Shown here piece after piece: positions 549 through 4,049 of a stretch of DNA of 4,049 nt; positions within the stretch are counted from its first letter, which is position 1, and each line of letters starts with the position of its first letter. The translations under genes and the position numbers were made by a program. Below the pieces are notes generated by a model. It had not been told where the DNA came from and did not search any database. It saw only the letters and a program-made list of their open reading frames with translations. This DNA is from a virus (lineage: Duplodnaviria > Heunggongvirae > Uroviricota > Caudoviricetes): the IMG/VR virus record IMGVR_UViG_3300006879_000664, positions 1 to 4,049 of that record. One strand, given 5' to 3'.

Positions 549-715
549 CAGGCATTACAGCAGCTCTTCAGCGAGGGGCTGCGATAATGCAGGTGTTAGA
601 GTGTGTGCAAATGATAATTAGTCCCATTTTCACGGGTCCTTCCTGAAATTTGGAACACCGAGGGTCTGGGGACGCGCAAAAACGCGCTATTTATGAAAAT
701 TTTCAGGGAAAAAGC

Positions 716-732
716 AGATCCGTTCTTCTTCT
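716..732 (+). promoter_or_regulatory. R3-like terminase small-subunit binding repeat (AGATCCGTTCTTCTTCT)
   Basis: Seen in sequence: 17-mer sharing the AGATCC(G/T)TTCTT core with the elements at 764-780 (inverted) and 816-832. It includes the CCGTTCTTCTTC block I recall from lambda cosB and a GATC site. Confidence 0.6.
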
Positions 733-763: not shown

Positions 764-780
764 AAAAAAAGAAAGGATCT
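764..780 (-). promoter_or_regulatory. R2-like terminase small-subunit binding repeat (inverted copy; reverse complement AGATCCTTTCTTTTTTT)
   Basis: Seen in sequence: the reverse complement of 764-780 matches the 816-832 element at 15 of 17 positions. The inverted orientation relative to R3 and R1 mirrors the lambda cosB arrangement. Contains a GATC site. Confidence 0.6.
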
Positions 781-815: not shown

Positions 816-832
816 AGATCCTTTCTTCTTTT
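816..832 (+). promoter_or_regulatory. R1-like terminase small-subunit binding repeat (AGATCCTTTCTTCTTTT)
   Basis: Seen in sequence: direct copy of the AGATCC(G/T)TTCTT core, ending about 18 nt before the Nu1 start codon. Contains a GATC site. Confidence 0.6.
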
Positions 833-849
833 TGTGAGGAATATGTGCC

Positions 850-1398
850 GTGAAGGTTAACAAAAAGAAACTGGCGGAAATTTTTGAGTGCGATGTCAGA
901 ACAATCACTGGCTGGCAAAGTCAGGGGCTGAGAGTTTTGTCGGGGGGAGGCAAAGGTATCGAGGCCATGTTCAATACTGCAGAAGCCATTGAATGGTATG
1001 CGCAGCGGGAAAAAGATATCGAAAACGAAAAGCTCCGCAAAGAACTGGATGATTTGCGTGCGGCTGCAGAATCAGATTTACAACCCGGCACCATTGACTA
1101 TGAACGCTACCGGCTAACCAAAGCACAGGCTGACGCACAGGAGCTGAAAAATGCCCGTGAAGAAGGGCTGGTGCTGGAAACGGAATTGTTTACCTTCATT
1201 CTGCAACGTGTGGCACAGGAGATTTCGGGGATACTTGTACGTGTGCCGCTGACATTACAGCGTAAATATCCGGATATTTCACCGTCACACCTTGATGTGG
1301 TGAAAACTGAAATCGCGAAAGCCTCCAATGTTGCAGCTAAAGCCGGTGAAAACGTGGGCAGGTGGATTGATGATTTCAGACGCACAGAAGGCAGCTAA
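850..1398 (+). CDS. nu1: Terminase small subunit (lambda gpNu1 family), 182 aa, GTG start
   Basis: Seen in sequence: ORF 850-1398 with GTG at 850 and a GAGGA Shine-Dalgarno at 836-840. An in-frame TGA at 835-837 excludes any upstream start, and the ATG at 843 is out of frame. Established knowledge (recalled): the translation is collinear with lambda gpNu1 along its whole length, for example VNKK-LA-IF, the GGGKG motif, [33 protein letters not shown] and a similar length (182 vs about 181 aa). The N-terminus is the winged-HTH DNA-binding domain in lambda. Confidence 0.95.
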
Positions 1399-3286
1399 TG
1401 CAGCCGGTGCGATAGCTACAGGGCTTTTATCTCTCAATATTCCGGTTCCACTGACGACGGTTCAGTGGGCTGATCAACATTATTATCTGCCGAAAGAATC
1501 TTCATATACCCCCGGGCAATGGGAAACCCTGCCGTTTCAGGTTGCCATTATGAACAGCATGGGAAATGACCGGATCCGCACCGTTAATCTGATTAAATCG
1601 GCGCGCGTTGGTTACACCAAAATGCTGTTGGGGGTGGAGGCTTATTTTATTGAGCATAAATCCCGTAACAGTCTGCTTTTTCAGCCAACAGATTCTGCGG
1701 CAGAAGATTTCATGAAATCTCATGTTGAGCCAACGATCAGGGATGTCCCTGCATTGCTGGAGCTGGCTCCATGGTTCGGAAGAAAGCACCGCGATAATAC
1801 ACTCACCCTGAAGCGTTTTTCCTCCGGTGTGGGTTTCTGGTGCCTAGGTGGTGCCGCTGCTAAAAACTACCGTGAAAAATCTGTGGATGTGGTCTGCTAT
1901 GACGAACTCTCCTCGTTTGAACCGGATGTGGAAAAAGAAGGTTCGCCGACGCTGCTTGGCGATAAGCGTATCGAAGGCTCGGTATGGCCTAAATCCATAC
2001 GTGGCTCAACGCCAAAAATTAAAGGCTCCTGCCAGATTGAGAAAGCCGCAAATGAATCAGCGCATTTCATGCGGTTTTATGTCCCTTGCCCTCATTGCGG
2101 GGAGGCCCAGTATCTGAAGTTTGGCGATGATGCGACGCCGTTTGGCCTGAAATGGGAGAAGGGTAAACCGGAAACGGTGTATTACCTGTGTGAACATAAT
2201 GGCTGTGTGATCCGCCAGTCAGAACTTGACCAGAGCGGCGGACGCTGGATTTGTGACAATACCGGGATGTGGACGCACGACGGCCTGGCATTTTACAGCG
2301 CCGGTGATGAGGAGATGCCGCCACCGCGCTCAATCACGTACCACGTGTGGACAGCGTACAGTCCGTTCACCACCTGGGTACAGATTGTTTATGACTGGCT
2401 GGATGCGCTGAAGGATCCGAACGGTGTTAAGACGTTTATTAACACCACGCTCGGGGAGCCCTATGAAGAGGCTGTGGCAGAAAAACTGAGCTTTGAGTTG
2501 TTACTGGAAAAAGTCTGCCACTATGGCGCGCAGGTTCCCCTGCGGGTGGTTTACCTGACCGCAGGGATCGACTCACAGAAAGATCGCTATGAAATTTATG
2601 TCTGGGGCTGGGCTCCCGGCGAAGAAGCCTTTCTCATTGACAAGCAAATTATCATGGGGCGACCGGAAGACGAGGACACCCTTAAACGTGTTGATACGGT
2701 GATCCGGAAAAAATATCGCCATGCTGACGGTACTGAAATTTCCATTTCCCGCGTCTGCTGGGATACCGGTGGTATCGACCAGGACATTGTGTATCAGCGT
2801 TCCAGAAAACACGGCACTTTTTTTGTGCTTCCCATTAAAGGGGCATCGGTGTACGGCAAGCCGGTGATCACCATGCCTAAAAAGCGCAACCAGCGTGGTG
2901 TGTTTTTGTGTGAGGTGGGCTCCGATACCGTCAAGGAAATGCTGTACGCCCGTTTTGCCCTGCCGGTGGTTTCTGCCAGTGAAGCCGCCCCGTATACCTT
3001 CCGTTTTCCGGATAACCCGGACATTTTTTCGGAAGAAGAAGCACGTCAAATCGTGGCGGAAGAACTGGTGGAAAAGGTGGTTAATGGCAGGGTGAAACTG
3101 CTGTGGGATAAAAAAGGGCGACGCAACGAAGCCCTCGACTGCCTGGTATATGCCTATGCTGCCCTGCGTATTTCAGTACAACGATGGCAACTGGACCTTG
3201 AGGCACTGGCCCGGGCACGAAGAGACGAGCAGGATGAGGATGATATGAGTCTGGAAGAGATCGCGGCTGCACTGAGTGGAGGATAA
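1370..3286 (+). CDS. A: Terminase large subunit (lambda gpA family), 638 aa from ATG 1370
   Basis: Seen in sequence: the long ORF ends at TAA 3284-3286. Established knowledge (recalled): it is collinear with lambda gpA, including YYLPKES, WETLPFQ-AIMN, the Walker A-like KSARVGYT (1595-1618), [84 protein letters not shown], the nuclease-region LTAGIDSQ (2555-2578), [12 protein letters not shown] and NEALDC-VYA-AALRIS. Start choice is inference: ATG 1370 is preceded by AGGTGGA (1360-1366) and places YY at residues 38-39 exactly as in lambda gpA, whereas the track's ATG 1328 adds 14 residues and has no obvious RBS. The gene overlaps the Nu1 3' end by 29 nt in a different frame. Confidence 0.95.
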
Positions 3287-3289
3287 GTG

Positions 3290-3499
3290 ATGATTTATAC
3301 ACATGAGATGCTTTGTGATGCCCGCCGGGCATTACATGAACTGATGATCGGACGTGCTGTGGTTTCCGTCAGCAAGGACGGGCGTCAGGTTCAGTATTCG
3401 CGGGCGACGATTGGTGAACTGCGTCAGTATATTGAAGAGCTGGAAAGTGCGCTGGGTGTATCCGGACGGCGTCGCGGCCCGGCAGGAGTGGGGCTGTGA
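3290..3499 (+). CDS. W: Head-tail joining / head completion protein (lambda gpW family), 69 aa
   Basis: Seen in sequence: ATG 3290 (the track starts at the adjacent GTG 3287) is preceded by GGAGGA at 3278-3283, 3 nt after the terminase large-subunit stop; TGA at 3497-3499. Established knowledge (recalled): the product matches lambda gpW in length and in the motifs AR-ALH-LM-G, KDGR-V, YI-ELE and the C-terminal RRRGPAG. Confidence 0.9.
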   Translation: MIYTHEMLCDARRALHELMIGRAVVSVSKDGRQVQYSRATIGELRQYIEELESALGVSGRRRGPAGVGL

Positions 3500-4049
3500 A
3501 CGGGGAACTGGTGGATCTTCACGGGCAGCCACTGCGGCAGAGTATGGGGTATTCCGGAGGGGGTACCGGATTTGGCGGGCAGCTTGCGGAATGGCTGCCT
3601 GCACCGGAAAGTGCCGACGTGGCGCTCTTACCTTCCATTCAGCTGGGTAACGCCCGTGCGGATGATCTGGTCCGCAATAACGGTATTGCCGCAAACGCCG
3701 TTGAAATTCATAAAGACCATATCGTCGGACACATGTTTCGTCTGAGTTACCGGCCCAACTGGCGCTGGCTGGGGATGTCGGAAGCCGATTCACATGTCTT
3801 TATTGAAGATGTTGAGGCAGCGTGGATGGAATTCTGCGATCCGGTGTTTGGTTCGATGGATGTGGAGGGGCGTCGCTCGTTTACCGAATTTATTCGTGAA
3901 GGGGTGGGCGTTCATACATTTAACGGTGAAATTTTTGTCCAGCCCGTATGGGATACGGAATCCACGTCATTATTCCGGACGAAATTCAAAACCATCAGCC
4001 CGAAACGTGTCAGTACACCCGGTTATGGTACCGGCGATCGTTTTATGCG
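3496..4049 (+). CDS. B: Portal protein (lambda gpB family), 5' part only (184 codons), runs off the right edge
   Basis: Seen in sequence: the frame containing GTG 3496 is open from 3436 to the window end and was verified codon by codon. It is absent from the ORF track, presumably because it has no stop inside the window. Established knowledge (recalled): the translation matches the lambda gpB N-terminal region (GGG-GFGGQL, LGNARADDLVRNNG-AANA-HKDHIVG-FRLS-RP-W, EAAW-EF, FNGE-FVQ, W-T-S-LFRT-F, SPKR). Start is inference: GTG 3496 overlaps the W stop as GTGA, has AGGAG at 3484-3488, and gives an N-terminal length close to lambda; ATG 3544 is an alternative. Confidence 0.92.
   Translation, partial: MNGELVDLHGQPLRQSMGYSGGGTGFGGQLAEWLPAPESADVALLPSIQLGNARADDLVRNNGIAANAVEIHKDHIVGHMFRLSYRPNWRWLGMSEADSHVFIEDVEAAWMEFCDPVFGSMDVEGRRSFTEFIREGVGVHTFNGEIFVQPVWDTESTSLFRTKFKTISPKRVSTPGYGTGDRFM

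Follow-up and report, generated by a model that had tools for sequence, protein, structure and literature searches.

A lambda/21-type cos site with a predicted non-lambda cohesive end: one allele of a prophage lineage in which the overhang core appears hypervariable

Gene Order and Distribution of the Region

The window, that is, the whole 4,049-bp stretch of DNA analysed here, covers the late-region junction in a lambda/21-like prophage and carries the following genes:

249-548: unannotated ORF of 99 aa, no Pfam match
850-1398 (+): terminase small subunit (TerS) of the Nu1/gp1 type, GTG start (Pfam Phage_Nu1, E = 2.7e-85)
1370-3286 (+): terminase large subunit (TerL) of the gpA type, ATPase and endonuclease domains (Pfam GpA_ATPase, GpA_nuclease)
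3290-3499 (+): gpW-like head-tail joining protein (Pfam gpW)
3544-4049 (+): lambda-family portal protein, start only, as the gene leaves the window (Pfam Phage_portal_2)

A RefSeq prophage, L189, is colinear with the window and has the same gene calls, including a TerS homologue annotated at the same coordinates and RefSeq annotations for the gpW-like and portal proteins. At the DNA level the ORF at 249-548 shares 96.5% identity with the region of a hypothetical gene in the Stx2e phage phiP27, and because the phiP27 terminase differs, a mosaic boundary is placed between this ORF and cos. The ORF is separated from terS by a non-coding cos region of ~300 bp, and an Rfam search of the window returned no RNA family.

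At least 80% of the window is found in 73 of 5426 complete E. coli genomes, always as prophage, with ~95-97% identity for the best matches listed. Among the members of the lineage are Stx2e prophages from porcine E. coli and SerU-LTIIb, an LT-IIb prophage. In the latter (L001, KU052038.1) a CDS at 2975-3193, annotated as "NU1-like protein", covers cosQ, cosN, and cosB and lies upstream of the true terS; like ORF 650-802 of the window, it is probably a false gene call.

Anatomy of the cos Region

Set against the lambda and phage 21 junctions, which were reconstructed in circular form from NC_001416 and OL657228, the non-coding region divides into the following elements:

634-640 (+): cosQ heptamer GGGTCCT, packaging-termination element, identical to lambda and 21 cosQ
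641-662 (+): cosQ-cosN spacer, from the entropy profile of relatives and left-flank variants
663-674 (+): predicted 12-nt cohesive end, 5'-GGTCTGGGGACG, from the lambda/21 offset to I2 and R3, invariant flanks, and symmetry
675-686 (+): right flank CGCAAAAACGCG, compared with the lambda/21 junctions
687-704 (+): I2-like block CTATTTATGAAAATTTTC, equivalent to lambda bp 25-42 at equal offset and conserved with lambda and 21
716-730 (+): cosB R3 repeat AGATCCGTTCTTCTT, presumed TerS anchor site (repeat family D1, inverted pair I4; aligns with lambda R3, bp 50-65)
764-780 (-): cosB R2 repeat, inverted relative to R3 and R1 (inverted pairs I1 and I4)
816-830 (+): cosB R1 repeat AGATCCTTTCTTCTT (family D1), 93% identical to R3 at a spacing of 100 nt

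Positions 655-686 of the window probably cover cosN, the predicted terminase nicking site, of a lambda/21-type cos belonging to an E. coli lambdoid prophage. A complex cosB with R3, inverted R2, and R1 at lambda spacing is present, the IHF I1 site being judged by eye, and an IHF I2 site is annotated at the position of the I2-like block in M81255. The first-pass annotation had anchored its alignment on cosB blocks at lambda spacing, and the I2 block and the R3 core do lie at exact lambda offsets, the core (CCGTTCTTCTTC, 720-731) corresponding to lambda bp 58-69 at equal offset from position 1. Extraction confirms that annotation's reading of 663-674 as GGTCTGGGGACG and of 675-686 as CGCAAAAACGCG. 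Its estimate that about half of the positions agree with lambda is borne out, as GGTCTGGGGACG matches GGGCGGCGACCT at 6/12 positions (1, 2, 4, 6, 8, and 11; ~3/12 expected by chance), and the adjacent segment differs as described, CGCAAAAACGCG matching lambda CGCGGGTTTTCG at 5/12 positions (CGC at the start and CG at the end). In this right flank the CG beside the nick (675-676) is kept and an A-tract takes the place of the lambda T-tract; the same flank is common to loci with a canonical left half (L036, L152). A reading of CGCAAAAACGCG as an inverted copy of lambda CGCGGGTTTTCG (~10/13 by eye) was considered and rejected, the segment being a GC-rich near-palindrome that also stands beside canonical left halves.

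To the left of cosN, the cosQ-to-cosN spacer measures 22 nt in the window vs 23 in lambda and 21. A junction indel had been offered as the alternative to a different cohesive end; a 1-bp indel does exist, but it sits in this spacer and not inside cosN. Spacer positions -12 to -3, which read TGAAACACCG in relatives and TGGAACACCG in the window, are nearly invariant across the lineage. The dinucleotide flanking the left nick is AG (661-662) in the window vs CG in lambda, and GG or CG in sister loci. A 10-nt inverted repeat (642-651/698-707; CCTGAAATTT / AATTTTCAGG, 90% complementary) brackets cosN and is centred at 674.5, near the predicted bottom-strand nick at 674/675; inspection of the relatives by eye gave no clear case of covariation within it.

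The R repeats of the window share the core GATCC(G/T)TTCTTCTT, and the recognition-helix region of the window TerS (850-1398) reads RTITGWQS. The same region reads RTIQNWQE in lambda and RTIERWQS in phage 21. The TerS and R repeats of the window may thus represent a packaging specificity apart from both lambda and 21. In relatives, TerLs of the same clade as the window's are found with four cosB types.

Variation of the Predicted Overhang across the Lineage

The lineage was assembled by searching IMG/VR and metagenomes for the exact right flank plus I2 pattern (CGCAAAAACGCGCTATTTATGAAAATTTT) and by adding E. coli chromosomal copies; 45 sites were obtained, corresponding to 33 unique segments of 89 nt. 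The 32 segments with cosQ at -29 were used, so that cosQ is kept in 32/32 of this selection, and the invariance of right-flank positions 13-41 carries no information because it is fixed by the search pattern. At the predicted overhang position the 32 segments contain at least 13 different 12-mers of the form GG-N7-ACG. The commonest is that of the window, GGTCTGGGGACG, and others are:

GGTCATAGCACG, GGTCATGGGACG, GGGCGGCAGACG, GGACGGCAGACG, GGGCTGGGGACG, GGTACGCGTACG
GGTACGTGTACG, GGTAGGCATACG, GGTAGCCATACG, GGTCGGTAGACG, GGTCGTAGGACG, GGTCTGTGGACG

Across the 32 segments, column entropy is zero at positions -12 to -3 (almost), -1, 1, 2, and 10-12, none of which belong to the search pattern, and rises to a maximum of 1.8 bits at positions 5 and 7 of a variable block spanning 3-9 (window 665-671). 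This block lies between invariant flanks and therefore falls inside the 12 nt chosen by positional homology. Together with the exact spacing and a dyad axis between bp 6 and 7, this pattern argues for a non-lambda cohesive end at ~663-674, as first proposed. The left half, GGTCTG in the window vs GGGCGG in lambda, is itself affected, positions 3, 4, 5, and 6 all varying in the lineage.

The comparison with database cos sequences that the first-pass annotation had suggested thus showed that GGTCTGGGGACG recurs and that it belongs to a lineage of variable overhang cores. By this conservation pattern, hypervariability of the overhang core across a whole prophage lineage is the larger phenomenon, of which that annotation had made no mention. 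At least 16 independent loci, whose left flanks differ, share the 12-mer GGTCTGGGGACG and its right flank (10 from the lineage search, 3 metagenome contigs, and 4 E. coli chromosomes); their spacers differ, and their cosB is either lambda-like or 21-like. Strains with this allele include E. coli M8 (NZ_CP019953, at ~1.382 Mb), ETEC1738, and BMH-17-0027. Since the 12-mer and flank are identical in all of the 16 or more loci, the divergence from lambda is not due to decay of the window copy alone.

Identical spacers carry 3 or 4 different overhangs, and the same overhang is found with four cosB types, namely lambda-like GATCCGTTCTTCTTC, 21-like TGTCGGTACTTCTCG, and two CCGGTTT types; the overhang core therefore assorts independently of both flanks. 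Some alleles resemble chimeras, such as GGTCAT joined to GGGACG and GGGC joined to TGGGGACG, and positions 3 and 5 occur in all four combinations. Stepwise intermediates are also present, from the canonical overhang of L043 through GGGCGGCAGACG of L036 to the window type, with TerLs that are 93-95% identical.

Several individual records carry unusual combinations. E. coli 08-00022 (NZ_CP013662.1) harbours two co-resident prophages, at 2.39 Mb and 1.51 Mb (L192 and L194), with the unlike overhangs GGACGGCAGACG and GGTCGGTAGACG beside an identical TerS protein (WP_042966179.1) and the same cosB. The 27-kb isolate record of Escherichia phage vB_EcoM-705R4 (L187, ON470624.1) is the sole isolate-phage record with a lineage-type cosN module, ACACCGAG GGTCGGTAGACG CGCAAAAAC at 1516-1570; it has no I2 block, its TerS is weakly similar at the C-terminus only, and its TerL is only 38% identical to that of the window, so that the cosN module spans deeply diverged gpA-type terminases. 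In E. coli K_EC180 (L153, NZ_CP062203.1, ~4007-4100), a truncated Stx2e prophage with a terS pseudogene and without terL keeps cosQ-cosN-cosB with the allele GGTCATAGCACG. The truncated prophage with this allele also occurs at L155, L157, L163, and L168, and ~10 porcine ETEC genomes appear to carry such a copy (H51-H58, all at 83.8% identity, H51 alone being confirmed). Between L153 and the intact Stx2e prophage L151 the flanks are near-identical, yet the overhang contains a cluster of 4 substitutions, at its positions 5, 6, 7, and 9.

Other Lambda-Like cos Sites

A scan of IMG/VR and of one genome per species for cosQ, a gap of 40-52 nt, and an I2 block placed the canonical overhang GGGCGGCGACCT in 111 of the 146 sites listed. 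Most of the remaining listed sites vary in bp 7-12 only (CAGACG, AAGGCG, CAGCGG, CGTCCT, and others), and the window type GGTCTG is the only recurrent left-half variant among the matches listed. According to Feiss et al. (2015, PMC4669245), variation within bp 7-12 is frequent, whereas selection acts on cosQ, on the left half, and on the CG dinucleotides beside the nicks, all of which are conserved. In a paper that cites the dedicated survey of natural cosN variation (Vahanian et al., 2017, Virology 509:140), the first 4 bp and two flanking bp on each side are described as conserved.

The scan also returned exact or near-exact lambda-type cos junctions in assemblies of unrelated organisms (L129, L136, L137, L138, and L139; a Nanosynbacter MAG, Raphidiopsis, Aeromicrobium, Archangium, and an Alicyclobacillus "plasmid"), which look like lambda DNA or vector contamination, and a match in Chryseobacterium (L132) that was rejected as a chance pattern match. 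One IMG/VR contig (L083) contains two lambda-like cos sites in inverted orientation ~950 bp apart, at 9602-9671 (+) and 10555-10624 (-), with the overhang GGGCGGCAGACG.

Terminase Conservation and Rates of Change

TerL was extracted from every locus with enough downstream sequence. The window protein is 82.8% identical in amino acid sequence to phage 21 gp2 and ~64% identical to the lambda-type TerL group in the sample. At lambda gpA positions 383 and 439, near the start of the nuclease half, Cys and Lys are found in 29/29 TerLs of the variable-overhang lineage and in 0/59 other lambda-like TerLs. No alignment column separates TerLs that adjoin variable left halves from those that adjoin canonical ones.

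For the 22 loci in which terL is complete, divergence averages 0.114 at fourfold sites and 0.141 in the cosQ-cosN spacer vs 0.472 at overhang positions 3-9. Even the 8 pairs that diverge by less than 0.02 at fourfold sites (mean 0.006) have different bases at 37.5% of overhang-core positions. The terL gene itself is under purifying selection (~98.5% amino acid identity vs 11% fourfold-site divergence). At other lambda-like cos sites, left-half differences are ~0 at TerL divergence up to 50%, whereas in this lineage they number 1.6-2.3 per pair even at TerL divergence below 0.5%.

Placement of the Nicks and Alternative Explanations

The nicks are predicted between 662/663 on the top strand and 674/675 on the bottom strand. 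A scan of two-fold symmetry in the single window sequence gave no usable signal, nor did lambda, the measure being informative across the family only. Over the 13 distinct 12-mers, symmetry reaches 62% at axis 6.5 (between window 668 and 669) vs 12-42% elsewhere. The symmetric pairs in the window are -1/13, 2/11, 3/10, and 4/9, with T3..A10 symmetric where lambda has G3..C10. Positions 4 and 9 covary, as C..G in 8/9 GGNC types (GGTCATAGCACG having C..C) and as A..T in 4/4 GGTA types. Nick placement is reported to depend critically on the distance to R3, with changes of even 3 bp being deleterious (PMC9026076). The symmetry axis at 6.5 and the exact R3 distance together support the predicted nicks. 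No record or contig starting or ending at the site was found among the GenBank phage records, IMG/VR contigs, and metagenome contigs searched.

Three features of the locus stand against the lambda register: the left flank is AG or GG and not CG, with a CG 2 bp further left (CACCG/AG); the cosQ-cosN spacer is 1 bp short; and the midpoint of the variable block 3-9 is position 6 rather than 6.5. They could reflect a functional cos that is nicked in another register or spacing, so that 663-674 would not be the true overhang; nicks at 660/661 (after the CG) and 674/675, for instance, would yield a 14-nt overhang, and a shorter overhang can equally be envisaged. Such an arrangement is improbable, however, as the symmetry axis is sharp at 6.5 and the distance from position 12/13 to R3, in which 3-bp changes are reported to be deleterious, is exactly that of lambda. 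Moreover, the AG left flank is paired with the canonical GGGCGGCGACCT in L043, and L046, where the spacing is 23 nt and the flank CG, has the 12-mer of the window. An overhang change brought about by co-evolved nuclease specificity of TerL, creating a new cosN-TerL pair in the manner of cosB and TerS in lambda vs 21, appears a still poorer prospect. When the window is set against L036 and L043 only, a few fixed substitutions are seen in the nuclease half (lambda 405-457 and 544-560), but these type-specific residues vanish with more loci. Ten different 12-mers lie beside TerLs at least 98% identical to that of the window, TerLs of 98-99% identity being paired with A, G, or T at position 3; the L036 TerL, 94.7% identical to the window's, adjoins GGGCGGCAGACG, and that of L043, 93% identical, adjoins the canonical lambda overhang. 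Given near-identical TerLs beside many 12-mers and no separating column, the overhang differences do not represent co-evolved nuclease specificity, and the altered terminase nicking specificity suggested in the first-pass annotation is not upheld. TerL appears indifferent to overhang positions 3-9.

That all copies are integrated prophages, and that a truncated Stx2e prophage lacking terL frequently carries GGTCATAGCACG, would suit a decayed, non-functional cosN in a defective prophage, its divergence being mutational erosion. Erosion is nevertheless a very improbable account of an exact GGTCTGGGGACG shared by at least 16 loci with diverged surroundings, of a variable block whose bordering flanks are invariant, and of two-fold symmetry that is preserved with 4-9 covariation. 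The terS, terL, W, and portal genes are also intact, with terL under purifying selection, and GGTCATAGCACG itself occurs beside an intact TerL as well (L163, L167, and L172). A functional site is argued for on these same grounds, namely the recurrence of the 12-mer in diverged surroundings, the invariant flanks with preserved symmetry, and the intact packaging genes under purifying selection; because all copies are prophages or uncultivated contigs, the activity of the site is presumed from gene intactness.

A Model for cos Function and Overhang Turnover

A functional lambda/21-type cos, representing one allele of a lineage in which the overhang core varies freely, is the best explanation and a likely one. 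For such a site we infer the following function in vivo. The Nu1-type TerS (850-1398) would bind the R3, R2, and R1 repeats of cosB and position two gpA-type TerL endonuclease centres (1370-3286) symmetrically over cosN, where TerL would nick the top strand at 662/663 and the bottom strand at 674/675. Virion DNA would then bear 12-nt 5' overhangs, 5'-GGTCTGGGGACG, with cosQ (634-640) serving termination. Overhang positions 3-9 would be free to vary, with a turnover much faster than that of nearby neutral sites, while the flanks ACACCGRG/GG ... ACG/CGC and the spacing to cosB would stay fixed. As the core varies and the flanks and cosB spacing do not, nick placement in the lineage is most likely set by flanks and spacing and not by the overhang core. 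[quoted passage not shown]

New alleles appear to spread and recombine when unlike cohesive ends anneal and are then repaired or replicated. Working with mismatched lambda/N15 ends, Feiss et al. (2015, PMC4669245) showed experimentally that such ends anneal, that the resulting phage are viable, and that both alleles segregate. The source of new alleles could be relaxed constraint and drift, damage to single-stranded overhangs, or diversifying selection.

Novelty and Implications

The lambda-type cos described here is ordinary in architecture; its cohesive-end core is unusual and apparently unconstrained. On the accepted view in the accessible literature, selection holds the left half and the CG flanks constant, and drift is confined to bp 7-12. 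A literature search with 11 of the 12-mers or their reverse complements returned unrelated primer matches only, the 2017 cosN survey (Vahanian et al.) lying outside its coverage, and a literature search on Stx2e and cos returned nothing relevant; a prior description in that survey is possible.

A more speculative proposal, which we regard as rather unlikely though conceivable, is that the cohesive-end core is not only hypervariable but effectively programmable, with nicks set by flanks and cosB spacing and with selection maintaining the diversity by favouring sticky ends that are incompatible between lambdoid prophages residing in, or infecting, the same cell. If true, sticky-end incompatibility would limit cross-annealing, hybrid concatemers, and satellite piracy. 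The two prophages of E. coli 08-00022 fit this reading, since their TerS and cosB are the same and their overhangs differ.

Near-identical TerLs beside at least 10 overhangs would amount to a natural mutagenesis experiment on nick-site choice by terminase. Among prophages that carry toxin genes (Stx2e, LT-IIb), the alleles would mark out groups with compatible sticky ends, and such groups bear on which genomes circularise, recombine at cos, or get packaged as hybrids. The alleles also suggest orthogonal cos or cosmid packaging sites, and tools based on the lambda overhang will miss the termini of phages of this lineage.

Comparison with Known Systems

The site resembles lambda cos in its cosQ heptamer, in its I2-like block and lambda-like R3/R2/R1 repeats (CCGTTCTTCTTC core) at equal offsets, as well as in its Nu1/gpA-type terminase and its partial two-fold symmetry about bp 6 and 7. 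It differs from lambda in the predicted overhang, of which half the positions are shared with GGGCGGCGACCT and which includes the left-half changes G3T and G5T, in the AG left flank and the right-hand A-tract, in the shorter cosQ spacer, and in a TerL that is only ~64% identical.

Natural cosN variants have been described in N15 and phiD326 (bp 9 and 12), Gifsy-1 (bp 8, 9, and 11), and mEp213/LLS (GGGCGGCGCGCT). These share with the present lineage the natural variation of a terminase-tolerated, lambda-like 12-nt cohesive end, and variation in bp 7-12 is also found in our sample; unlike the published variants in the accessible literature, all of which keep GGGCGG and the CG flanks, the lineage varies at positions 3, 5, and 6 of the left half and in the -2 flank. 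The route demonstrated for unlike overhangs by Feiss et al. (2015, PMC4669245) fits both the chimera-like alleles and the independent assortment of the core, although it was obtained with a laboratory construct having 2 mismatches, whereas the lineage alleles, which may or may not be able to anneal, differ at up to 7/12 positions.

Phage 21 (gp1/gp2) has the closest characterised terminase genes (~82% nucleotide identity, with TerL at 82.8% in amino acids), the same gene order, and an I2 block identical in type. It differs in having the canonical lambda overhang and the cosB R sequence TGTCGGTACTTCTCG. The window overhang is combined with a 21-type cosB in the sister loci L046, L151, and L154.
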